This document shows positions 43,506-61,641 of a DNA stretch of 64,000 nucleotides, piece after piece. Below the pieces are notes generated by a model, which was given only the letters and a program-made list of their open reading frames with translations, made no database searches and was not told where the DNA came from. The stretch spans positions 21,560-85,559 of the forward strand of contig CAZLAD010000002.1 of assembly GCA_964557535.1 (NCBI GenBank). The letters run 5' to 3'. Origin of the DNA: an uncultured Candidatus Saccharibacteria bacterium (GTDB lineage Bacteria; Patescibacteriota; Minisyncoccia; Phycocordibacterales; CSBR16-119). Positions within the stretch are counted from its first letter, which is position 1. Each line of letters begins with the position of its first letter. A program made the translations under genes and the position numbers.

Positions 43506-44816
43506 ATGAAAACTAATATTGAGGTTGTTTATGTTCGCACGGATCTACTTTCTGCTGCGGAATATAATCCACGCACGTGGGACTCAGAAGCCAAGAAGCA
43601 TTTAACAGAGAGTATTAATAAATTTGGTGTTGTTGATCCGCTCATCGTGAACGGTGCAACGAATCGAAAGAATATTGTTATCGGTGGGCACTTTCGTCTT
43701 GAAGTGTTAAAAGAACTTGGGCATGCCGAAGTTCCTGTCGTGTATCTAAACATACCCGACATAAACAAAGAGAAGGAACTAAATATTCGTCTCAATAAAA
43801 ACCAGGGAGAATTTGATCTCGATCTTCTAACATCTTTCGACGAAGGCTTATTAGCCGATATTGGTTTTTCAAGTGAAGAGCTTGATGATATTTTCCTTGA
43901 TGACATTGAAGAAGATGAGTTTGATCTAAAGAAAGCACTTGAGAGACTAGATATACAAAAAATTTCGGTAAAACCAGGAGATGTATACGAGATAGACGGC
44001 TCGCGTCTTATGTGTGGTGACTCGACAATAGAGTCTGACATGAAAAAGCTTGTGGGGAATGAAAAAGCCGACATGGTAATGACAGATCCACCATATATTC
44101 TCGACTACCTAACAAAACCAAACCAAGGAGGTTTTGGCGCAAATCAGAATAGAAAATATCTTGGAACCGACAGCTTGCCTCCAAACTTCACGGAGCTTTG
44201 GATGAGTAATGTTGCCGGGGCAGCCCAAAAGGATTTCTCTATTATCGTTTACGAGAATTGGAAGAATATTAGAACCATCTGGAATGAAATGGAGAAACAT
44301 TGGCGCGTCCGAAATATGATCGTTTGGCATGCCGCCAATAGAAGCCAGGGATATGCCGGCAAACACAAGTTCTTCAACAAGCACGACATCGCGATTGTTG
44401 GTACGACGCCAGGAAAAGATGTATCCAGCGAACAAGAAGATGCTCTTATCGAAAATGAATATGAGACGGCACTATTTGCAATTTCTGGAAGTCCTCATTG
44501 GGAGAAATATGAGAAAGGTAATCCATACTGTCCAACCGATTTCATCTCTCACAATGTAGCAACTGAAAAATCTTCTGGCCAAGGGGTTGTCTTTGGAACA
44601 AAACCAATCGAACTCTTGATTCCGTATATCAAGGTGCTGACCAAGCGTAATCAGTTGGTCCTGGAACCATTTGGCGGAAGCGGATCAACCCTCATCGCCT
44701 CCATTAAGATTAGTCGTCGATGCTTTACCATGGAGAAATCTCCCGTCTATTCTGAAGTCATCCTTACACGGTGGGAAAAATTAACTGGTAAGAAAAGAGT
44801 AAAAATAAATGCATAA
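43506..44816 (+). CDS. ParB-like nuclease domain fused to an N6A/N4C DNA methyltransferase (circularly permuted motifs: DPPY before FGGSG)
   Basis: N-terminal ParB/Srx fold (VDPLIVNG...GGHFRLEVLKELG), then MVMTDPPY (motif IV) and EPFGGSGSTLIAS (motif I). Confidence 0.75.
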   Translation: MKTNIEVVYVRTDLLSAAEYNPRTWDSEAKKHLTESINKFGVVDPLIVNGATNRKNIVIGGHFRLEVLKELGHAEVPVVYLNIPDINKEKELNIRLNKNQGEFDLDLLTSFDEGLLADIGFSSEELDDIFLDDIEEDEFDLKKALERLDIQKISVKPGDVYEIDGSRLMCGDSTIESDMKKLVGNEKADMVMTDPPYILDYLTKPNQGGFGANQNRKYLGTDSLPPNFTELWMSNVAGAAQKDFSIIVYENWKNIRTIWNEMEKHWRVRNMIVWHAANRSQGYAGKHKFFNKHDIAIVGTTPGKDVSSEQEDALIENEYETALFAISGSPHWEKYEKGNPYCPTDFISHNVATEKSSGQGVVFGTKPIELLIPYIKVLTKRNQLVLEPFGGSGSTLIASIKISRRCFTMEKSPVYSEVILTRWEKLTGKKRVKINA

Positions 44817-45264
44817 CAATGATATTAGAAAACAATTTATTGAAACTCTCGAAGAAGTCCCTTTCGTTAAATATGCTGCCAAGAAGGTCGGTATCAATCG
44901 TACGACTATATATCGATGGATGCAGGAAGACCCAAGATTCAGAATTCAAGTAGAAAAGTCTTTGGGTGAGGGCCGTAAATTACTTATCGAAGACGCGGAG
45001 TATCAATTACTAAAAAAGATTAGAAAAGATGGCAACCAAAGAGCCATAGAGTTTTTCCTAAAACATAATAATAAGAAGTATTATCCAAGAAAAACGATGG
45101 AGGTATATCCATTGGCTGAAGACCAGTATCAGATGTCGTTTGAAGAACACGCGGCTATCGAGTTGTGGTCAGAGAAGTTTGTTGAGCTATCTCCTATGTG
45201 GCGACGAATCTTCTCTGACATGGAAAAGAAGCTAGGAAACCCCGACGAAGACCGATCCTTATAA
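44809..45264 (+). CDS. HTH DNA-binding protein (terminase-small-subunit-like or regulator)
   Basis: VGINRTTIYRWMQ helix-turn-helix. Overlaps the upstream gene by 8 nt. Confidence 0.5.
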   Translation: MHNNDIRKQFIETLEEVPFVKYAAKKVGINRTTIYRWMQEDPRFRIQVEKSLGEGRKLLIEDAEYQLLKKIRKDGNQRAIEFFLKHNNKKYYPRKTMEVYPLAEDQYQMSFEEHAAIELWSEKFVELSPMWRRIFSDMEKKLGNPDEDRSL

Positions 45265-45276
45265 GGAGGAAGATGA

Positions 45277-45882
45277 TTAGTCGATTTGCACTAAGGTGTT
45301 GCAAGCCGTATCGTAACCATCACTCTCATTCTTCAAGAATTCACAGAGATTGCCACTATCGAAGTTCGACCAAGCGATCTTTTCATAGGTCGCTTTGTCG
45401 ATTGTATATACCAAGATCACTTTGTTTTCTGCATTCCCATATTTATCTGTCGTGTCGCCGTAGTACCAAACCAAGACATCGTACGCTTCTGGATGAGAAG
45501 AATATATTTCTTGGAATGTTTTGGCGGATAGCTCTCCTGTATTTCGGTATAAGGAATCTTTGTTGTAGAACGAAGAAAGAGAATATTTAACCGTGATCAT
45601 TTTCGTGTCGACAGGACGATCTGGGTCAGATTTCTCTATGTCCATTCCTACATAGGAAGCATGTGCAAGCGGAATGTCTTTAACAATCGCTTTTAGTCTA
45701 TCTTCTGGCGTTAGTGATTGTGCTGGAACATTTGTTGCAACAGTTTGTTCTGTTTTCTTGCCATCACCAGATCCGGCGATGACGAAAAGAAAAATAATAA
45801 AGACTACAATTCCAGTAATTACTGGGTGGCGTTTGATCCAGGACTTGGTTGTCTTAGGATCCATCATTGGGTGTTTATCCAT
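45277..45882 (-). CDS. N-terminally membrane-anchored extracytoplasmic protein, hypothetical
   Basis: TM helix VITGIVVFIIFLFVIAGSG, then a ~160-aa domain. Confidence 0.45.
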   Translation of the reverse strand: MDKHPMMDPKTTKSWIKRHPVITGIVVFIIFLFVIAGSGDGKKTEQTVATNVPAQSLTPEDRLKAIVKDIPLAHASYVGMDIEKSDPDRPVDTKMITVKYSLSSFYNKDSLYRNTGELSAKTFQEIYSSHPEAYDVLVWYYGDTTDKYGNAENKVILVYTIDKATYEKIAWSNFDSGNLCEFLKNESDGYDTACNTLVQID

Positions 45883-46167
45883 ATGTTATTACTAATTAAT
45901 AAATCCCGATGATGGATACAAAAAGCCCACCACGGGTAGGGCCCGAAAGCCCTCATACGAGTTTCCTCGTATGGCCAATCAGACAACCCCATGATGGGTT
46001 CTTTATGTCTGATTGGACTTTTTCACCATGCCCAGTAAGGGGTTTAGGCTACTTTATTTATTCGATTGTTCGACCATAATACCAAATAATAGGCATTACG
46101 CCCACCACCATAGCAGATTCCAGGATTTTGCGAAGGGGGTTACCAACAAGTTTAGATCTAAATTTTT

Positions 46168-48780
46168 TTACTTGATATCTTTTTTAGTTTCCACATTCTT
46201 GATACCCCAAGTTTCAAAAACCTCTCCTGTTATCCTTCTTAGATTTTCATTTTTTGATTTTATTAAATCAGGCATTTTTTTATCTAAGGGGTATTTCGAT
46301 AAGTTAACCCATGGCCACTGGTTCTTTTTAAGAAAACCGATTAATTGTTCTTGGGCGGCTTCATCGGAAGCATTAATCTTATCGACTAGCATGTCCATAA
46401 ATTTAGATGCGTATTCTGAGGGAGGAGGAATTTTTTGGAATCCTTGATTGATAAAATTAGCAATATTATCTGACAAGGCGGCTATATGTTTAGGGATGAT
46501 TCTTTTCCATATCTCTTCGGGTGTGGAAATATTTTGTTGAATTATAAAATTTAGACTCTGAATAAGAACATTAATATCAACTGAATCTTCAATCTTTTTC
46601 AATAGCTCCCCTTCGATCTCGGAAACCTTCCACGAACTATCGTCGGCTTTTGAGACTGCCCAAGTCGTAACGTCTGCATTTAAATCGTATACTTGTTTTA
46701 GAATTTTCTCTTTTAAGATTGTAATTCCGTTAGGTATAAAATATTTCAAAATTTCGAATCTCTTATCTCGTAGATCGTTATTCTCTCCTAACAAACCATC
46801 AGCAAAAGTATTTTCCATACCTTCCATTTCTTTTTGTACCGCAGGTTTATCTAGTTGTGGAAATAGATTTAACATTCTATTTGTTAAATCTGTTGGATTC
46901 TGAGGATAGAAATTCCTGTACCATCTAGTAAGTAGAGAGCTTGTGAAAATTCCAGGCTCAATAATGTTTGCGTTATCAAAATCGTTGGAATTTAGTATAA
47001 AATCAAATTTATTTTTAAAGCCATCGAAGATCGATTGTTCCTCGATAAGATCAATCCAGTGCGTAAAAGAATTAACGATATCAAATTTTTGTGCCAAATT
47101 TACAATAAAGTTGAGGTCTACGTCTTTTAATTTATCTGCAAATATTTTATGAACGGAATACTCTTTGGGAAACTGGGCTAATGCTATCATCAGAGCTTTT
47201 AAGATGCTTCCTCGTGTTTCTTCACCAAGACCTGGTAGTCTAGTCGAGACTACGCCCGCATAGTTAGATAAATTATTATCCCCAGAAGAAGCAAGAACGT
47301 TTTTTATTTGTACTGGATCACCAGTATCAATAATAGAAACAAAATCATCCCCAGATAATCCTCTATGATCACCAAAACTTGCATCTGCCGCCAAGAAAAT
47401 GAATGGTCGTATGTCAGCAATATCTAGACTGAAACCTTTATAGAATCTAGGATCCTCGTAGAGAAATGCCTCTATGAAACTTTTCTGACCCGAAGACATA
47501 TCTGTTCCGTACTTAGTTACTTCTTCATTTATTTTTACAGAATCTTTTTTCTCAACTAGGTACTCTAACTTTAGAAGTATCTCTTGATCATTGACAATTT
47601 TATCAAAAAGAGGCGGGCAAAGTTCTTGTAACATCAGAATACGTACTACGAGGAGGGGTTTATCGAGCATTTCCATAAAGTATTTCTTTTGTATTTCATC
47701 CTGATCACCAGATTTGCTTTGAATGATTTCAAAGGTGAATAATGTAGTTTCAATAAACCTGATAATTTGGCGATAGTTCTTACTGAAATATTTTTTTAAA
47801 TATCCGGCAAAAATAGTTTTATCATCTTCTTTAAGGAATATCTTATCTAGAGCCGAGTCTTTCTCCTTTAGCTTTTTATCAATGAATGAATCGATTTCCT
47901 TTTCTAATGGGAGAGGTAGGCGCCAATAAATATTAAATATTTTCTTTAAAAATCTTCTACCCTCCTCAAGTTGTTCAGGGCTGTTCGAATCCGGAAGAAT
48001 ATCTTTACCTAAATATCTTTCTAGAACGGTATGATCACCTGTTACCACGAATGTAATATCTTTTTTATCGAAGAACGTTCTTAGGTTATCTAGAACAGTA
48101 TGAGCAATTTCTGGAGTTACCCTATCAAGATCATCAACAAAGATAACAGGCTTCTTTTTATCTGATTTAAACGCATCAATAATTTTTCGCAAAAGCTCAT
48201 CAAATTGATCAATTGTAGAAATGGCATGATTACTTTTTTGCACAGTAATCATATTGCCCACAATACCAAGAAAGATTGGTATTCCCATTAACATTATCAA
48301 TGACTTCCAGTTTTGGATGAAAAGTTTGAAAGGATCAGAACATTGCATAACCATGTATACAATAAAGATCGCACCTGCAATCAAGAATAGATTTCCCCAA
48401 TGGACATTTGTCTCCGACGTGTCAAAATCTAGTGCTTTAAGGTCTTCTTTGACACCCGTATCAGTCAAATCACCAGCTAGTGTTTTCAAAAAATTTCTAA
48501 GGAAAGACGTACTATCGCTATCAGAAGCAAATTTCCAAGGATTAATTCTAAATATTTTAAATTTTTCTTCTTTAGAATCGGTCTGACTAACCAAATCTTC
48601 TTCTAATTGGTCCAAAAAGTGTGTTTTACCCTCGCCCCATTTCCCAGAAATACCAAAAATGAAGGATTCGCTATGCTTTCCGTGATTATCCTTTATTGTG
48701 TTGGCTACTTGTTTTACGAAGTATTTTTTACTATCCATAGTCTCGAATTTAGCATAAAAATCTTCATATTTATAGGGCAT
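46168..48780 (-). CDS. KAP-family P-loop NTPase (870 aa) with two TM helices inserted in the NTPase domain
   Basis: Walker A GISGKWGEGKTHF. The hydrophobic helices LFLIAGAIFIVYMVM and LIMLMGIPIFLGIVGNMI sit between Walker A and Walker B (VIFVDDLDR). A long alpha-helical C-terminal region follows. This is the defining KAP architecture. Confidence 0.7.
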   Translation of the reverse strand: MPYKYEDFYAKFETMDSKKYFVKQVANTIKDNHGKHSESFIFGISGKWGEGKTHFLDQLEEDLVSQTDSKEEKFKIFRINPWKFASDSDSTSFLRNFLKTLAGDLTDTGVKEDLKALDFDTSETNVHWGNLFLIAGAIFIVYMVMQCSDPFKLFIQNWKSLIMLMGIPIFLGIVGNMITVQKSNHAISTIDQFDELLRKIIDAFKSDKKKPVIFVDDLDRVTPEIAHTVLDNLRTFFDKKDITFVVTGDHTVLERYLGKDILPDSNSPEQLEEGRRFLKKIFNIYWRLPLPLEKEIDSFIDKKLKEKDSALDKIFLKEDDKTIFAGYLKKYFSKNYRQIIRFIETTLFTFEIIQSKSGDQDEIQKKYFMEMLDKPLLVVRILMLQELCPPLFDKIVNDQEILLKLEYLVEKKDSVKINEEVTKYGTDMSSGQKSFIEAFLYEDPRFYKGFSLDIADIRPFIFLAADASFGDHRGLSGDDFVSIIDTGDPVQIKNVLASSGDNNLSNYAGVVSTRLPGLGEETRGSILKALMIALAQFPKEYSVHKIFADKLKDVDLNFIVNLAQKFDIVNSFTHWIDLIEEQSIFDGFKNKFDFILNSNDFDNANIIEPGIFTSSLLTRWYRNFYPQNPTDLTNRMLNLFPQLDKPAVQKEMEGMENTFADGLLGENNDLRDKRFEILKYFIPNGITILKEKILKQVYDLNADVTTWAVSKADDSSWKVSEIEGELLKKIEDSVDINVLIQSLNFIIQQNISTPEEIWKRIIPKHIAALSDNIANFINQGFQKIPPPSEYASKFMDMLVDKINASDEAAQEQLIGFLKKNQWPWVNLSKYPLDKKMPDLIKSKNENLRRITGEVFETWGIKNVETKKDIK

Positions 48781-48800
48781 TCAATCCTTGACCTCCAAAA

Positions 48801-50147
48801 GTGTTTGCGTCATCCATAGAGTATATGGAAAAAGCGATTACAGGGCTTATAAGCCCACCAGTGTTACCCAGTATAGAGAAAGTCAGGTATTGTCTCTACG
48901 CTCGTAAATCCAGTGAGGATTCCAGCGAAAAACAGGCCCTTTCGGTGGATTCCCAAGTTAAGGAAATGTTGGCTATTGCCGAGCGAGAAAACTTAGAAAT
49001 CGTGGATATTCGGCGTGAGTCTCATTCGGCCAAGGATTCTGGTCAAAGACCTGTTTTTAACGAATTGGTTCGGGATCTCCGTAGTGGAAGATACACGGGT
49101 ATTTTAACCTGGGCCCCGGATAGACTTTCGAGAAATGCAGGAGATTTGGGCTCGCTCGTTGACCTGATGGATCAGAAACTTCTTCATGAGATAAGAACCT
49201 ACGGCCAGTACTTTAGAAATTCTCCGAATGAGAAATTTCTTTTGATGATTCTATGTTCACAAGCGAAACTTGAGAATGATAATAAAAGTATCAATGTTAA
49301 ACGTGGTCTTCGTACACGATGTGAAATGGGACTGTGGCCTGCGCCAGCTCCAATGGGATATTTAAATGAAATGAAGACGGACAGAAAAGGATATGTCTAT
49401 GTTGATCCAGAAAGAGGACATGTTATTAAAAAAATGTTTGAGAAAGTTGCCTTTGAAAAATGGAGCGGTAGAAAACTTTATCACTGGTTAAAGTTTGAGC
49501 TAAATTTTAAGACACCAAACGGCAATAAAGGCTTAACCTTGAGTTGTATTTATCTGATTCTTAGCAATCACTTTTATTATGGTACTTTTGAATTCCCAAG
49601 AAAAAGTGGTGTATGGTACAAAGGCATACACGAACCTATTATCACGAAAGAATTATTTGATCAGGTTCAAGAGCAGATGAGAAGCCAGTTCGTGAAATCA
49701 GAAACAAAAGAGTTTGCTTTCACGAAGCTTATGGCCTGCGGGCTGTGCGGTTCTGGCGTAACGGCTGATGAGAAATTTAAAAAGCAGAAAAATGGAAATA
49801 TACACAGACATGTTTATTATGGGTGTACTAGGGTACGCGACCAAAATTGTAAATGTGCATATATTAATGAGCCAGATCTTATTAAAGAATTTGAGTGCCT
49901 AATGGACGAAATTGATCTCAATGAGTTGGGGATGAAAGAAAAGATTAAACTTGAAATTGAACGATTCAAAAAGTTCCAGAAACTCGTTTCTGGTAAAAGC
50001 CAAATCATCAAAATTGATGAGGTTGATATACGAAATTACGCAAAGTTTGTTTTGGCTGAAGGAGCGCTGATTGAGAAACGTGAATTGCTTGGGAATTTAA
50101 AAGGAAAGATTATATTAGGAGATAAGAAAATCTCTTTAGTTTCCTAA
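48801..50147 (+). CDS. Large serine recombinase (resolvase catalytic domain + recombinase domain + zinc ribbon)
   Basis: YARKSSEDSSEKQALSVDSQ (catalytic Ser), DRLSRN, and CGLCGSGV...YYGCTRVRDQNCKC zinc ribbon. 448 aa. Confidence 0.8.
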   Translation: MFASSIEYMEKAITGLISPPVLPSIEKVRYCLYARKSSEDSSEKQALSVDSQVKEMLAIAERENLEIVDIRRESHSAKDSGQRPVFNELVRDLRSGRYTGILTWAPDRLSRNAGDLGSLVDLMDQKLLHEIRTYGQYFRNSPNEKFLLMILCSQAKLENDNKSINVKRGLRTRCEMGLWPAPAPMGYLNEMKTDRKGYVYVDPERGHVIKKMFEKVAFEKWSGRKLYHWLKFELNFKTPNGNKGLTLSCIYLILSNHFYYGTFEFPRKSGVWYKGIHEPIITKELFDQVQEQMRSQFVKSETKEFAFTKLMACGLCGSGVTADEKFKKQKNGNIHRHVYYGCTRVRDQNCKCAYINEPDLIKEFECLMDEIDLNELGMKEKIKLEIERFKKFQKLVSGKSQIIKIDEVDIRNYAKFVLAEGALIEKRELLGNLKGKIILGDKKISLVS

Positions 50148-50954
50148 TTCTTTTTTAAGAACAAAAATTTTCTTGGTAATCGTGAATTGAATAGTATTTC
50201 CTAGATCTTCGTACTTGAGCTTTTCTTTTAATTCGGGGTTAAATCTTTCGCGGATGTATTGGTTGAGCTGTTCAAGTTTCGACATGTCGCCGCCGAGCTC
50301 TTGTTCAAGTCGTCGAATAGAGTTAAACCGATAGTGGATAGGATGAAATTCATGAATGTTTCCGAAACCAGCCTTTTTAACATTTTCAATAAATTCATCT
50401 TCTCTAAAAAAGTATCTCTCGGTCATGAGCATGTCGAAGCCGCTCAATTCGTCTTTCTTGCGGATAATGTCTTGGAACAAGGTTTGAGTTTCATTGTCGA
50501 GCATGATGTCCCAGATGACAATCTTGCCAGTTGGCTTTAGTAACTTGTGGAACTCTTGTAGCACCTCGAGTTGCAAGGCCTTGGAAACCTCGTGGAGCCC
50601 CATTTTGAGTGCTATGGTATCGAAAAAAGATTCTTTGAATGGAGCTCCGGGCAAAGATGCGACAGAAAATCTTTCGGCTGGAAGATTTGGCAAATTTTCT
50701 CTCGCTCGCTGTACCTGTACATCACTTTCATCGACGAGATAGACGACTGCGTTCGGATTTCTCTCTAATACCTCTTTACCGATAGCTCCATATCCGCCCA
50801 TGGCGTCCAAAACGATCTCACCATCTTTCGGATCAATAGCATCAATAAACGCCTTTTTATCCGCAGGGTCAATCGAGTGGATGTACTCATAGGAAACTAT
50901 TCTATTGTCGAATCCTTGTTTCATAATTTTACAGATAATCTCCTCCGCTTTCAT
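50136..50954 (-). CDS. Class I SAM-dependent methyltransferase
   Basis: VLDAMGGYGAIG (motif I), YLVDESD (acidic post-I), KPTGKIVIWD. Confidence 0.65.
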   Translation of the reverse strand: MKAEEIICKIMKQGFDNRIVSYEYIHSIDPADKKAFIDAIDPKDGEIVLDAMGGYGAIGKEVLERNPNAVVYLVDESDVQVQRARENLPNLPAERFSVASLPGAPFKESFFDTIALKMGLHEVSKALQLEVLQEFHKLLKPTGKIVIWDIMLDNETQTLFQDIIRKKDELSGFDMLMTERYFFREDEFIENVKKAGFGNIHEFHPIHYRFNSIRRLEQELGGDMSKLEQLNQYIRERFNPELKEKLKYEDLGNTIQFTITKKIFVLKKELGN

Positions 50955-51750
50955 TTTTGAATTCCTTTCTGAATTGTTTCCATCCGATAAGATTGCCCAT
51001 TCTTTTTCTTGTGTTTAGTGCTTGAGCGACATGCTCGAATGGACTCCAGTGTCCAGACGAAGAAAGCCTCTCACATAATTTTAGATCGCTATTGATATCA
51101 GAAGTTTTTCCATCAAAAAGAGAGTAACTCACTCGTGCGCATCGAGCCGCACTAATCTTTTTTCTCATCTCTAGATCAAGGGTATGTTCAGTGTCTAAAA
51201 TAAAAGGAAGATGCCATTCATCAGATTGCAATATGTTTGGTTTCTGATCCTGTAAGAGTAAATTCATCCTTTCTGCGACATATCTGATTTCAGGCTGAGC
51301 GGCTTCGTTTGATCTTAGAGAAATAAAGTTGGACCACTCTGTCGCAGTTATAATCACATCAACCATGAGCCAAGGTTCTATGAGTCGATTCACCACCTCC
51401 TTATGCATTCCTAGTTTTTCTCCCAGCCAATGAAAGAAAACAGGTACATACCTAGACCAAAGCCATATCTTTTTTGCCAAGAATAGTTTTAGACCTCTAA
51501 AGGGCTTGCCAGATTGCATGCCAGCCCTGTTCTCACCGAAATATACTGGCAAGAAAGGATCATTAAGAACATATTTTCTAATTCTTTTTGCTGGAATAGC
51601 CCTACTCGAGGCAGAGTTTCTTGAAAGCGTTCGATGACTAATGATATGTCCCCAAAGAAATTTGGGGATCTTGAGAACAAAAGTTGCCAGACGCTTTTGG
51701 GTATCTGTTGATTCAGAATAAGTAATTAATGATACTTTAATTTTATTCAT
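50929..51750 (-). CDS. ThyX-like (flavin-dependent thymidylate synthase fold) protein with altered motif order and a degenerate signature
   Basis: N-terminal FVLKIPKFLWGHIISHRTLSRNSASSRA aligns with the ThyX segment [28 protein letters not shown]. The first Arg of the RHR signature motif is replaced by Ser. C-terminal AARCARVSYSLFDG...GHWSPFEHV resembles the ThyX N-terminal segment AARVSFD...GHETPFEH. Confidence 0.5.
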   Translation of the reverse strand: MNKIKVSLITYSESTDTQKRLATFVLKIPKFLWGHIISHRTLSRNSASSRAIPAKRIRKYVLNDPFLPVYFGENRAGMQSGKPFRGLKLFLAKKIWLWSRYVPVFFHWLGEKLGMHKEVVNRLIEPWLMVDVIITATEWSNFISLRSNEAAQPEIRYVAERMNLLLQDQKPNILQSDEWHLPFILDTEHTLDLEMRKKISAARCARVSYSLFDGKTSDINSDLKLCERLSSSGHWSPFEHVAQALNTRKRMGNLIGWKQFRKEFKNESGGDYL

Positions 51751-52879
51751 GTTTGTCTAGTATATCAGTTACCGTATCAGGGACGTCGATAAACCCAAGC
51801 TGTCCAATTTCGTTGTTTGTCAGAGCTTCTAAAGTTGATCCGTACAATAGGCCAATAGTACGTTCGATTTCTTCTGGGGTTGATTCGTATCGATTACCTT
51901 TGAATGTTATTGGAAACCCGTTGTTTATGAGTACCAAATTATCCCAAATAACATCTCCATGGATTTCAGAAGATTTAATACTGTTTTTTCTTATGTATAT
52001 TGTCGGGAACTCGCGATCAGCCGATGACATACTTATAAGGTAGAGCTTATAATCTAAAAGATCTTTAATTTCTTGAAGCTGTTCCTCGTTTAGAATATTT
52101 GAACCCGTCACACCAACCACAACATTAATATTATTATCTCGAATCAGGTTCACTAATTCAGATTTATCATGGTGAGCAATATCGTACCCTAATGCAAAAT
52201 AACCTTTCTCTTTAAATATCGAAAGCGTATTACTACCCATAGGTCCTAGTCCGACAACGAGAATTCTTGGTTCAGCAATGGAATACTGCTTGAACGCATC
52301 TACCATTCTATTGCACCCCAGCTCCGCGATGAGAGGACTTTCTTTTATAAGTTTGACCGAAGCACGGGCGACATTGAATATTGGGAAATGAACTTGTGAT
52401 TTTTCAAGCTTTCTAAAACCAGATGAGGTTTGTTCGATGCCGATGACAGGAATCTCTTTGGATATAGAATCAAATTTATCATTTACGATTCTAAGCAACT
52501 CTCCACCATCATCTAAAATAATAACTTTTGAAGGATTCTTGATCCGAGACAAGAATAAATCGAGTTGCTTGGTGCAATTTTCAGCATGTTCGATATCGAA
52601 TGAGACAGATTGATCGAAGTTTGGTTGGACAACATTAAATCCAGCGTCAGATAATTCTTTCAATACTTCATTACTGGTTGAATAGATCTTGCCGAAGATA
52701 TGAATGTTCTCTTTTGGAACACCAAACTCTACCAATAACTCAAACATTTTTGCTTGCGACTCGAGTATGTGCTGACAGGCGAGAATATAGACATTATCAA
52801 ATCCACCCTTTTTTGAATCAAAATAACGGGAGATCTCCTCCAGTAGAGAATACTTATAAGCTGTTTCCATGACTTCCAT
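51743..52879 (-). CDS. S-adenosyl-L-homocysteine hydrolase-like protein (divergent)
   Basis: ILACQHILESQAKMFELLVEFG...IHIFGKIYSTSNEV matches GCLHMTxQTAVLIETLxxLGA...CNIFSTQDHAA. VIILDDGGEL matches ILDDGGDL. NAD-binding VVGLGPMGS matches AGYGDVGKG. Confidence 0.55.
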   Translation of the reverse strand: MEVMETAYKYSLLEEISRYFDSKKGGFDNVYILACQHILESQAKMFELLVEFGVPKENIHIFGKIYSTSNEVLKELSDAGFNVVQPNFDQSVSFDIEHAENCTKQLDLFLSRIKNPSKVIILDDGGELLRIVNDKFDSISKEIPVIGIEQTSSGFRKLEKSQVHFPIFNVARASVKLIKESPLIAELGCNRMVDAFKQYSIAEPRILVVGLGPMGSNTLSIFKEKGYFALGYDIAHHDKSELVNLIRDNNINVVVGVTGSNILNEEQLQEIKDLLDYKLYLISMSSADREFPTIYIRKNSIKSSEIHGDVIWDNLVLINNGFPITFKGNRYESTPEEIERTIGLLYGSTLEALTNNEIGQLGFIDVPDTVTDILDKHE

Positions 52880-52950: not shown

Positions 52951-53024
52951 TGGCTGCGGAACCTGGACTCGAACCAAGATACCCTCCTCCAGAGGGAGGT
53001 GTCCTACCATTAGACGATTCCGCA
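52951..53024 (-). tRNA. tRNA-Gln(CUG), CCA encoded
   Basis: Cloverleaf UGCGGAA-UC-GUCUAAUGGUAGGAC-A-CCUCC-CUCUGGA-GGAGG-GUAU-CUUGG-UUCGAGU-CCAGG-UUCCGCA-G-CCA, similar to E. coli tRNA-Gln2. Confidence 0.75.
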
Positions 53025-53109: not shown

Positions 53110-53838
53110 TTGTCCATGACTGAAAACAATAAACCTTTTAGACCAAAGAAGCTTTCGATCGAAGAAATCAAGAGTGGCTGCGTCTATGTCTACGGCAAAG
53201 ACTCTGACGAGACTCAAATCTGCGTCATGAACGAAGAATTTCGCCAAGGCTTCGATATAGTGAAGAAAAACAAAGACGGAAATAAATCCGTCACTTTCTG
53301 GGGATCAGCCAGATTCCCCGTCGAAAACGAATACTATCAAAAGGCTTTACGACTCGGACGCAGACTTGCTCAGGAACTCAACTGCATGATCGTCACCGGC
53401 GGCGGCCCAGGCATCATGGAAGCCGGCAATCGCGGAGCTTATGAAATGGGCAAACCGTCTCTTGGCCTCACCATCAATTTGCCGATGGAACAACAGACCA
53501 ATCGCTACGTCACGGAGGAAATTCCTTTCTACTTTTTCTTCACCCGAAAAACACTTATGGCATATTCTGCCGAAGCATATCTGTACTTCCCCGGCGGATA
53601 CGGCACACTCGACGAACTTTTTGAAATTTTGACACTTGTCCAAACGGGCAAAATTTCCAAACTACCGATCATCCTCGTCGGCGAGAAATTCTGGAGACCG
53701 CTCGATGAGTTCATCCGCCAAACACTCGACACCGAGAACCAAACCGTCTCTCACGAAGACTTAAATCTTTATCAGATCATCGATGACGAAGACCAGATCA
53801 TCGAAATCGTCAAAAACGCACCGATGAGAAATGATTAA
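53110..53838 (+). CDS. LOG-family protein (TIGR00730 Rossmann-fold nucleotide-binding / cytokinin riboside 5'-monophosphate phosphoribohydrolase-like)
   Basis: IVTGGGPGIMEAGNRGA and YFPGGYGTLDELFE motifs. Confidence 0.75.
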   Translation: MSMTENNKPFRPKKLSIEEIKSGCVYVYGKDSDETQICVMNEEFRQGFDIVKKNKDGNKSVTFWGSARFPVENEYYQKALRLGRRLAQELNCMIVTGGGPGIMEAGNRGAYEMGKPSLGLTINLPMEQQTNRYVTEEIPFYFFFTRKTLMAYSAEAYLYFPGGYGTLDELFEILTLVQTGKISKLPIILVGEKFWRPLDEFIRQTLDTENQTVSHEDLNLYQIIDDEDQIIEIVKNAPMRND

Positions 53839-60832: not shown

Positions 60833-60909
60833 TGAGCCATCTCCCGGGATTGAACCGGGGGCCTCATCTTTACGAAAGATGCGCTCTACCAACTGAGCTA
60901 AGATGGCTC
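60833..60909 (-). tRNA. tRNA-Thr(CGU)
   Basis: GAGCCAUCUUAGCUCAGUUGGUAGAGCGCAUCUUUCGUAAAGAUGAGG-CCCCGGUUCAAUCCCGGGAGAUGGCUCA. Anticodon loop UUCGUAA. Confidence 0.75.
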
Positions 60910-60939
60910 GCCAATTGTGTGCGACATTTATCCCGTGAG

Positions 60940-61012
60940 AGCCGATGGCGAGACTTGCACTCGCGGCCTCCCCCTTACCATGGGGGTGCTCGACTACCTG
61001 AGCTTCATCGGC
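60940..61012 (-). tRNA. tRNA-Thr(GGU)-like gene with unusual features (T-loop TGCAAGT, A8, U73, acceptor helix extendable to 11 bp by flanking complementarity); possibly a divergent or pseudo tRNA
   Basis: GCCGAUG-AA-GCUC-AGGUAGUC-GAGC-A-CCCCC-AUGGUAA-GGGGG-AGGCC-GCGAG-UGCAAGU-CUCGC-CAUCGGC-U. Confidence 0.5.
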
Positions 61013-61170
61013 TCTCATGAGACAAAGTATTTTATCTTGGCGACAGTCGTCATGATAGCCAAAAGCCCGCTATATTTCAAGCGAGCTTTCTTTGACGAGA
61101 ACAAAAAGGGATTGAAAAGTAGAGGCTTTTATGTTAGTTTTTACCTATTGTCGCGTCAGACGCGACTTAT

Positions 61171-61244
61171 GTCGGGGTAGCTCAGACGGTTAGAGCGTAG
61201 CACTCATAACGCTAAGGTCGAGAGTTCGATTCTCTCCCCCGACA
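61171..61244 (+). tRNA. tRNA-Met(CAU) (elongator-type; could also be tRNA-Ile2)
   Basis: GUCGGGG-UA-GCUC-AGACGGUUA-GAGC-G-UAGCA-CUCAUAA-CGCUA-AGGUC-GAGAG-UUCGAUU-CUCUC-CCCCGAC-A. Confidence 0.75.
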
Positions 61245-61371
61245 CAGCGTGCGGGGAGGAAAGCAAACGACTTTGCTTTCCGTGAGGAATCGAAGGCCGG
61301 AGTCATGTCTCAAGCAATTAAAGAGACAGGCGAGGCGGGGTCGCGACCTTTTGCCAGGCAAAAGAGTTGTG

Positions 61372-61392
61372 ACCGATTCTCTCCCCCGACAC
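61372..61392 (+). repeat. Direct repeat of the last 20 nt of tRNA-Met plus 2 flanking nt (cgattctctcccccgacaca), 128 nt downstream of the tRNA
   Basis: 61227-61246 and 61373-61392 are identical. Confidence 0.7.
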
Positions 61393-61444
61393 AAAAACAT
61401 TGGCGATTTTAGGCTTTTTGTGATAGACTTTCGCCATTGTTATT

Positions 61445-61518
61445 GCGGGCGTAGCTCAACTGGTTAGAGCACTCCCCTGTCACGGGAGAGGTTGCGGGTT
61501 CGAGTCCCGTCGCTCGCG
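61445..61518 (+). tRNA. tRNA-Asp(GUC)
   Basis: GCGGGCG-UA-GCUC-AACUGGUUA-GAGC-A-CUCCC-CUGUCAC-GGGAG-AGGUU-GCGGG-UUCGAGU-CCCGU-CGCUCGC-G. Confidence 0.8.
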
Positions 61519-61520
61519 CA

Positions 61521-61560
61521 GCAAAGTGAAAAGCCGCCTTTTGGCGGCTTTTCACTTTTT
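61521..61560 (+). terminator. Strong rho-independent terminator (aagtgaaaagccgcc tttt ggcggcttttcactt + T-run)
   Basis: 15-bp stem. Confidence 0.7.
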
Positions 61561-61570
61561 CTTAAGTTTG

Positions 61571-61641
61571 TTGCGGGGGGCCGACTCGAACGGCCGTCCT
61601 CAGGTTATGAGCCTGATGAGTTACCACTACTCCACCCCGCT
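61571..61641 (-). tRNA. Initiator-type tRNA-Met(CAU) (1:72 mismatch, A73, CUCAUAA loop; ends approximate)
   Basis: AGCGGGG-UGGAGUAGUGGUAACUCAUCAGG-CUCAUAA-CCUGAGGACGGCCGUUCGAGUCGGCC-CCCCGCA-A. Compared with E. coli tRNA-fMet CGCGGGG...CCCCGCA-A. Confidence 0.65.

Follow-up and report, generated by a model that had tools for sequence, protein, structure and literature searches.

Which enzyme is encoded by an open reading frame (ORF) that carries the hallmarks of the flavin-dependent thymidylate synthase ThyX (also called FDTS) in an unfamiliar order? This question is raised by a 64,000-nucleotide stretch (the window) of contig CAZLAD010000002.1, from an uncultured Candidatus Saccharibacteria bacterium (assembly GCA_964557535.1). 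ThyX is a model for flavin-mediated methylene transfer and an antibacterial drug target, and its motif and active-site map derive solely from canonical enzymes. A sequence-only reading had placed a ThyX-like protein, on a strand it did not specify, at 50929-51750. That assignment is borne out on the minus strand, and we conclude that the ORF probably encodes a ThyX whose helical module has been transposed, as in the rest of a large and distinct subfamily, and which most likely synthesizes deoxythymidine monophosphate (dTMP). The ORF and its parts are as follows, with residues numbered from its first amino acid (aa).

50929..51750, minus strand: ThyX-like ORF, 273 aa; probable flavin-dependent thymidylate synthase of the rearranged subfamily (PF02511, PHROG_85, AlphaFold, Foldseek)
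51688..51750, minus strand: residues 1-21, N-terminal beta-strand (E5-14) in a hairpin with the strand preceding the motif; probably canonical beta2 (model, alignment)
51238..51687, minus strand: residues 22-171, core, equivalent to canonical residues ~62-199 (Pfam, hhalign)
51601..51639, minus strand: residues 38-50, SHRTLSRNSASSR, a variant of the ThyX motif RHRxxSxNxxSxR in which Ser takes the place of the first Arg
51160..51237, minus strand: residues 172-197, linker containing W179-H180-x-P182, which is invariant and specific to the family; no canonical counterpart detected
51028..51159, minus strand: residues 198-241, relocated module, equivalent to canonical residues 19-60 (TIGR02170, hhalign)
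50932..51027, minus strand: residues 242-273, conserved C-terminal tail, GN-x2-GWKQ-F/Y-RKEF-x2-E-x-GGD

Family membership and segment order

The Pfam family PF02511 (Thy1) matches the ORF with E=5.6e-15 and 56.1 bits, well above its gathering score of 24.8. The match falls in two stretches, one of which pairs residues 22-171 with profile positions 59-190. The NCBIfam ThyX model TIGR02170 aligns its positions 15-60 to residues 198-243, and PHROG_85, 'thymidylate synthase', matches with E=3.4e-60. A phmmer search of the PDB paired residues 195-272 with residues 17-91 of Thermotoga maritima (Tm) ThyX and residues 131-166 with 159-194, both in native numbering (the deposited chain carries a 12-residue tag, and native 17-91 are its positions 29-103). 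A genome scan with the single protein as query found only two loci. The nearest relatives are found in Candidatus Saccharibacteria metagenome-assembled genomes, and an identical protein is present on an independent contig. The family identity as such is already known, the gene being routinely annotated thyX.

The order of the segments is another matter. Canonical ThyX runs from its first strands through alpha1-alpha2-GHxxPFEH to the motif, the helical domain and NF..LR..AQ.E; the ORF does not, and its segments become colinear with canonical ThyX only after rearrangement in silico. To describe this, an alignment of 39 homologues of the ORF was compared by hhalign with a canonical set consisting of T. 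maritima ThyX (identical to 1KQ4) and ten phage ThyX. Left in native order, the alignment gave two separate matches that are out of order, one pairing residues 22-171 with Tm 62-199 (P 97.7%, E 1.5e-12) and the other pairing residues 200-241 with Tm 22-60 (P 96.3%, E 1.7e-9). When the alignment was cut anywhere in residues 172-200 and the halves were swapped, one colinear match to Tm 21-201 was obtained (score 132, E ~1.7e-19); cuts outside these residues did not improve the score. Searching with HMMER against a doubled T. maritima sequence likewise gave a single domain spanning the junction, in which profile positions 133-271 correspond to Tm 161-220 and then 1-89. Profile alignment with and without permutation, which the sequence-only reading had proposed as a check, thus converts two significant out-of-order matches into one. 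Its descriptions of residues 22-50 as the ThyX motif region with Ser for the first Arg (Pfam, 22-171; motif, 38-50), and of the C-terminal ~55 aa as resembling the N-terminal segment of ThyX (TIGR02170, 198-243; hhalign, 200-241), were both accurate.

The same reading had attributed this pattern to a tandem duplication with truncation at both ends, giving a permuted fold. The rearranged order stands, and a duplication followed by internal deletion and C-terminal truncation would be a reasonable origin for it. A clean circular permutation, however, is probably not the best description, although the margin in score is small: residues 1-19, 198-241 and 20-172, joined in that order, give the best colinear fit (Tm 7-199, 191 columns, score 153, E 1.8e-23), compared with 147 for the same reordering without the N-terminal strand and 132 for plain circular permutation. 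Letting linker residues 176-192 stand in for canonical beta1-beta2 in the rearranged profile alignment brought no gain, and the N terminus of the ORF, aligned alone to canonical ThyX, gave no significant match (the best was to Tm 6-17). The most economical reading is that the N-terminal strand was kept in place while a module of ~45 residues, alpha1-alpha2-GHxSPFEH, was relocated to the C terminus from its site between beta2 and beta3. The core (residues 22-171) consists of a strand and a helix, the ThyX motif with the helical domain, and the NR..EP helix together with NF..LR and AQPE; the relocated module holds alpha1 (AARCARVSY), alpha2 and GHWSPFEH, whose H234 corresponds to Tm H53.

The C-terminal tail had been taken for a piece of a second repeat, on the likeness of IGWKQFRKEF to ARQWFRHR. 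This part of the proposal fails. Residues 241-273 alone match canonical ThyX with P 2%, and the likeness arises only as a low-confidence extension of the adjoining alignment. The tail is likely to be functional rather than a decaying remnant, because it is among the best-conserved parts of the family (N253, Q259 and R261 are invariant; W257, K262 and E267 are nearly so).

Structure prediction agrees with the family assignment. The AlphaFold2 model of the ORF has a predicted local distance difference test score (pLDDT) of 91 and a predicted TM-score (pTM) of 0.87, and confidence drops at the C-terminal end, where the final two blocks of ten residues have a pLDDT of 80 and 54. Among the 50 PDB matches listed by Foldseek, 50 are ThyX/FDTS or the ThyX-like enzyme PolB, each at probability 1.00, and the different fold that could have undone the original assignment was not seen. 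Most of these alignments end at ~151 columns, with a root-mean-square deviation of ~4 A and a query-normalized TM-score (TMq) of ~0.41; target-normalized scores (TMt) are 0.41-0.69 overall. We attribute the partial coverage to the use of a sequential aligner on a rearranged chain. The longer alignments, of 200-218 columns and covering almost the whole target, have slightly higher TM-scores. A search of BFVD matched a phage homologue over its full length (TMq 0.89) and canonical phage ThyX over only ~150-170 columns. For this protein, name transfer by equivalog cutoff fails, as described below, and sequential structure alignment covers only a part.

The subfamily and its active site

The rearranged order is shared by a large group of proteins. 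In a 90%-identity collection, 6,134 homologues were detected at E<=1e-3, and a profile search of 1.84 billion representatives returned 4,254 clusters at E<=1e-30 (~4,250 clusters at 50% identity). The best 150 of these 4,254 clusters all have the segment order of the query, mostly over their full length, and the motif precedes HxSPxEH in 241/241 members on file that have both. Full-length homologues with 30-41% identity account for 1,034 phage records, mostly annotated thymidylate synthase, about half as many as the 2,141 records of canonical ThyX in the phage collection. Such a scale, with thousands of protein clusters, suggests that the accepted residue requirements of ThyX are not universal. 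Carriers include N4-like phages ('N4 gp30-like'), Vibrio phage ICP1, Pakpunavirus, rV5-like and phiCbK-like phages and Myxococcus phage Mx1. The rearranged gene of JWAlpha, an N4-like phage, lies in an early region shared with dCTP deaminase and thioredoxin. The PHROG_85 (N4 gp30-like) phage proteins belong to the same subfamily as the ORF, being colinear with it over the full length, 30-41% identical and identical in motif order.

To follow the active site, residues were mapped to T. maritima numbering and invariance was judged on the 39 family members. The ThyX motif keeps every position of RHRxxSxNxxSxR save the first Arg, and H39, R40, S43, S48, S49 and R50 of the ORF are invariant. At the head of the xHR triplet, the 241 members on file have Thr in 176 cases, Ser in 61 and Arg in 4; some canonical phage ThyX deviate too (KHQ/KHK), yet retain a basic first residue. 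Residues invariant in the family are Tm H79, R80, S83, S88, R90, N169 and R174, together with Tm H53, T55 (as Ser), P56, E58 and H59; N85, R28 and S30 are nearly invariant, and Q180 and E182 are the commonest residue at their positions. The six residues that contact the uracil ring or the flavin (H53, H79, R80, S88, R90 and R174) are thus 6/6 invariant, including the canonical uracil-ring readers S88, R90 and R174. Other active-site residues, of which R78 and Y91 are conserved in canonical ThyX and R74, E86 and R165 often so, are lost: R74 (mostly Ala, Ser, Gly or Pro), R78 (Thr or Ser), E86 (mostly Ser, Ala or Thr), Y91 (invariant Ala) and R165 (invariant Thr). Canonical R147 falls at N121/R122, with an ambiguity of one residue in the alignment. 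The family also has invariants of its own, namely S49, P68, G77-M78, W96, H116-K117, E125, W179-H180-x-P182, R203, N253, Q259, R261-K262 and E267, and ~36 alignment columns are invariant in all, the catalytic core included. The pocket is therefore remodelled, but the residues responsible for uracil recognition and flavin stacking remain.

Compared with canonical ThyX (T. maritima TM0449, PDB 1KQ4/1O26, PF02511), the ORF is homologous over ~190 residues and has the same fold by Foldseek, and the two share H53, E58, H59, H79, R80, S83, N85, S88, R90, N169, R174, Q180 and E182. The ORF differs in having its alpha1-alpha2-His module at the C terminus instead of before the motif, in lacking R74, R78, E86, Y91 and R165, and in its WHxP linker and C-terminal tail, which are extra; it is ~50 residues longer.

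The strongest evidence on function comes from Barbavirus phages of Rheinheimera, in which 52 isolates carry a canonical ThyX of 223 aa and 2 isolates a form of 303 aa, with no significant blastp identity between the two according to the authors (PMC6715854). We found the 303-aa gene to be a member of the rearranged subfamily. The canonical gene (L013 395-1063) and the rearranged gene (L022 4684-5595) occupy the same slot, between the ribonucleotide reductase (RNR) genes and thioredoxin-MazG. This swap at one locus between closely related phages suggests replacement in situ by an isofunctional enzyme that converts deoxyuridine monophosphate (dUMP) to dTMP, and gives canonical and rearranged ThyX the same genomic role in phages.

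Inteins point in the same direction. They occur in many subfamily members at three conserved sites, within the HR|S motif, at DAQ|PE and at GH|xSPFEH. Inteins favour the conserved sites of replication and nucleotide-metabolism enzymes, and their positions here fit such a role. The carriers on file include P0300, P0313, P0346 and P0338 and ~100 clusters, often with an HNH domain. A 2004 paper by Liu and Yang (J Bacteriol 186:6316) reportedly described 'distinctive ThyX motifs' and an intein-bearing thyX of Trichodesmium, and may have noted motif differences; because the subfamily is rich in inteins, it is plausible that these were differences of the subfamily. Beyond that possibility, we found no published description of the rearranged order, of a whole subfamily lacking the first Arg and the Tyr lid (Tm Y91), or of a partner protein with the fold of S-adenosylhomocysteine hydrolase (AHCY). 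A literature search for permuted ThyX, for ThyX in Saccharibacteria or Patescibacteria and for a link between ThyX and AHCY returned nothing relevant.

These observations suggest the following scheme. In canonical enzymes, the ~45-residue module (alpha1, alpha2 and the GH-x-S/T-PFEH loop, which carries the flavin/folate-stacking His) lies between the first strands and the ThyX motif; in the ORF, it follows the last core helix, leaving the motif near the N terminus, directly after a beta-hairpin. As in ThyX, the protein would form a homotetramer with active sites shared between subunits. NAD(P)H would most likely reduce the bound flavin, and the methylene group of 5,10-methylene-tetrahydrofolate (methylene-THF) would pass via flavin N5 to C5 of dUMP, giving dTMP. 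R203, H116-K117, W179-H180 and Q259-R261-K262 presumably take over contacts to phosphate and flavin.

The partner protein and the alternative readings

The gene next to the ThyX-like ORF is the more surprising element of the two. Its features are listed here.

51743..52879, minus strand: partner ORF, 378 aa (375 aa from the second Met); divergent AHCY fold with NAD-binding domain
52340..52375, minus strand: partner residues 169-180, NVARASVKLIKE, counterpart of AHCY NVNDSVTKSKFDN
52235..52252, minus strand: partner residues 210-215, dinucleotide-binding glycine motif GLGPMG, aligned to AHCY GYGDVG

The stop codon of the partner overlaps the start of the ThyX-like gene by 8 nt, and the two genes form a translationally coupled operon with the partner first and the ThyX-like gene second. 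Against Pfam, the partner matched no family, AdoHcyase included, and the AHCY model TIGR00936 gave 28.5 bits, far below its cutoff of 497.6. The profile of the partner family nevertheless matched AHCY in the PDB with E=7.9e-11. The predicted structure (pLDDT 92.3) aligned with AHCY over its full length in Foldseek (TMq 0.71-0.73, ~400 columns), giving a two-domain AHCY fold with an NAD-binding Rossmann domain, in which GLGPxG is invariant, as is an Asp, D233, that comes after the strand following the glycine motif.

Aligned motifs of AHCY and partner are DDGGDL/DDGGEL, EETTTG/EQTSSG, NVNDSVTKSKFDN/NVARSxxKLxxE and GYGDVG/GLGPxG. We take the catalytic set of human AHCY to be H55, D131, E156, K186, D190, H301 and H353, and K176 and E180 of the partner to stand at the positions of the catalytic Lys and Asp. 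In this distant alignment, the invariant partner residues H37, D124, K176 and E180 correspond to AHCY H55, D131, K186 and D190, whereas E156 aligns to Gln and H301 to Ser. As we read the alignment, neither the His of AHCY GHFD nor the residues contacting adenine and homocysteine are conserved.

The partner family has 346 detectable members, and those with organism names are from bacteria of the candidate phyla radiation (CPR). The pair of partner and ThyX-like genes recurs on several CPR contigs among unrelated neighbours (TrmB/LMWPc, NYN, NusA/TIM-PGK), and at least 23 ThyX-like clusters share with a partner cluster a longest contig of equal size. Partner-ThyX fusions form three clusters. The reverse order, ThyX-partner, forms one cluster found in two independent samples, and its residues 346-693 match the partner profile with E=1e-55. 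Because fusions occur in both orders, which is good evidence, a joint function of the two proteins is indicated. The partner probably assists the synthase, as an accessory or redox subunit, and its role could be NAD(H)-linked redox support, nucleoside-sugar chemistry or regulation. As CPR bacteria have a minimal nucleotide metabolism, the coupling and fusion of the two proteins there point to an unrecognized accessory function in dTMP synthesis. On another CPR contig, a gene for serine hydroxymethyltransferase (SHMT; L025 4673-5854) lies 0.6 kb from a fused partner-ThyX gene. SHMT is a source of methylene-THF, and its position fits the supply of this cofactor and an ordinary dependence on it.

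The fusion proteins are labelled P0185, P0208, P0215 and P0256. In the fused homologue P0185 (residues ~612-618), Tyr takes the place of the second His of SPFEH (SPFEY), a position otherwise invariant; this may be a genuine substitution or a variant introduced by sequencing. The reverse-order fusion P0256 ends (~residues 700-775) in a hydrophobic stretch resembling transmembrane helices, and the partner-type proteins P0397 and P0398 have a similar extension.

Several points weigh against reading the ORF as a dTMP synthase coupled to such a partner. We know of no biochemical characterization of any subfamily member, and 'thymidylate synthase' is an annotation by homology. The equivalog cutoff of TIGR02170, which is what licenses transfer of the name 'FAD-dependent thymidylate synthase', was missed (53.7 bits against 87.9). 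The equivalence of the relocated module in three dimensions draws on sequence profiles and Foldseek alignment lengths. Distant partner homologues from Parcubacteria and Paceibacterota do not lie beside a ThyX gene, and the phage homologues of the ORF occur without an AHCY-like partner; the partner is thus not required by the whole subfamily. Finally, in ThyX the RHR residues bind the phosphates and ribityl chain of FAD, the first Arg contacts the isoalloxazine ring and dUMP, and a Tyr forms a lid over the reacting atoms (PMC6514825). That Arg is absent here, and Y91, the Tyr lid, is invariant in the canonical ThyX set and an invariant Ala in the rearranged family.

Of the alternatives, the one that survives best holds that the AHCY-fold protein and the rearranged ThyX of CPR bacteria constitute an obligate two-component, sometimes fused enzyme unlike classical ThyX. 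The partner in such an enzyme might deliver reducing equivalents from NADH, modify the sugar of the nucleoside, or either provide or take away a one-carbon-related metabolite. The overlapping start and stop codons, the conservation of the pair while its neighbours change and the fusions in both orders all suit this idea, as does the retention by the partner of the NAD motif and of positions like the Lys/Asp pair of AHCY alongside the loss of the other substrate residues. We nonetheless consider an obligate enzyme of this kind improbable. The phage members, which share the T/S-H-R motif and lack an AHCY-like neighbour, and most bacterial members work without the partner (the ORF, in contrast to the phage genes, lies on a CPR chromosome and is coupled to it); the distant partner homologues stand alone; SHMT beside a fused gene points to ordinary folate dependence; and the reaction of the partner is not indicated by any evidence here. 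A broader proposal, that CPR rearranged ThyX is a two-component, sometimes fused system with an NAD-dependent AHCY-fold module and that the whole subfamily binds flavin and nucleotide without the first Arg and the Tyr lid, seems slightly easier to entertain, but is still doubtful. If true, the two-component reading would define a new kind of thymidylate-synthase system, in which the partner supplies reducing power, or else chemistry at the level of the sugar or linked to one-carbon units, for which classical ThyX has no need.

Less probable still is that the protein uses the same fold and flavin chemistry on another substrate or to another product, as a C5-methylase of UMP or dCMP or a hydroxymethylase for modified DNA bases. 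The sequence-only reading had drawn a conclusion of this type from the SHR triplet, suggesting that the substrate is not dUMP. In favour of such a change, the active site is clearly remodelled (R74, R78, E86 and Y91 are lost), the equivalog cutoff is missed, and a methyltransferase dependent on S-adenosylmethionine (SAM) and an island with a DNA methylase adjoin the gene in the window. Moreover, PolB (PDB 4P5A), a UMP/dUMP C5-methylase of polyoxin biosynthesis with a ThyX fold and altered specificity, is among the best structural matches (TMq 0.47-0.48) and shows that the fold can change its substrate. PolB, however, is colinear with T. maritima ThyX over residues 6-208 and so has the canonical order, unlike the ORF, and no specific similarity between the two was seen beyond the shared fold. 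A substrate other than dUMP is possible but not indicated, because Ser or Thr in first position is a trait of the whole subfamily (237/241), the uracil readers S88, R90 and R174 are invariant, and canonical ThyX is replaced at the same locus in Barbavirus. The phage genes have neighbours in nucleotide metabolism (dCTP deaminase, RNR and thioredoxin), which also speaks against it, as does the fact that the adjoining methyltransferase is not kept beside homologues. To our knowledge, no replacement of thymine has been reported in the well-studied carriers ICP1 and the rV5-like, N4-like and Pakpunavirus phages.

Lastly, a degenerate, non-catalytic relic of ThyX or an assembly or frameshift artefact, which the missing canonical residues and the metagenome-type source might suggest, is effectively refuted by the 4,254 clusters at E<=1e-30, the common order in the best 150 of them and in 241/241 members on file, the ~36 invariant columns with the catalytic core among them, the high-confidence model and the identical protein on an independent contig.

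Genomic neighbourhood

The host is a CPR bacterium of the Saccharibacteria type, and the window is ordinary bacterial chromosome, with genes for D-Ala-D-Ala ligase, BacA, TruB, RNase HII, CTP synthase and tRNAs. The genes nearest to the operon are listed below.

43506-44816: ParB-N6/N4 DNA methylase, island member
46168-48780: KAP-family NTPase, 870 aa, with PifA/QatA-like matches, island member
48801-50147: large serine recombinase, island member
50136..50924, minus strand: SAM-dependent methyltransferase, UbiE-like (PADLOC 'mad2' match, E=8e-14), directly downstream of the ThyX-like gene
52951-53024, minus strand: tRNA-Gln(CTG), immediately upstream of the two-gene operon
53110-53838, plus strand: LOG-family (Lysine_decarbox/SLOG) gene

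The downstream methyltransferase was considered as a third member of the unit and rejected, being absent beside homologues elsewhere. It borders a candidate mobile or defence island (43506-50147) that adjoins the operon and also holds a helix-turn-helix protein, with GC content dropping to 0.34-0.37 over 46-50 kb. A search for att-like direct repeats around the island gave only short repeats at chance level. Upstream of the operon, a scan for THF and other riboswitches found only the tRNA. Five further tRNA genes are clustered at 60834-61641.

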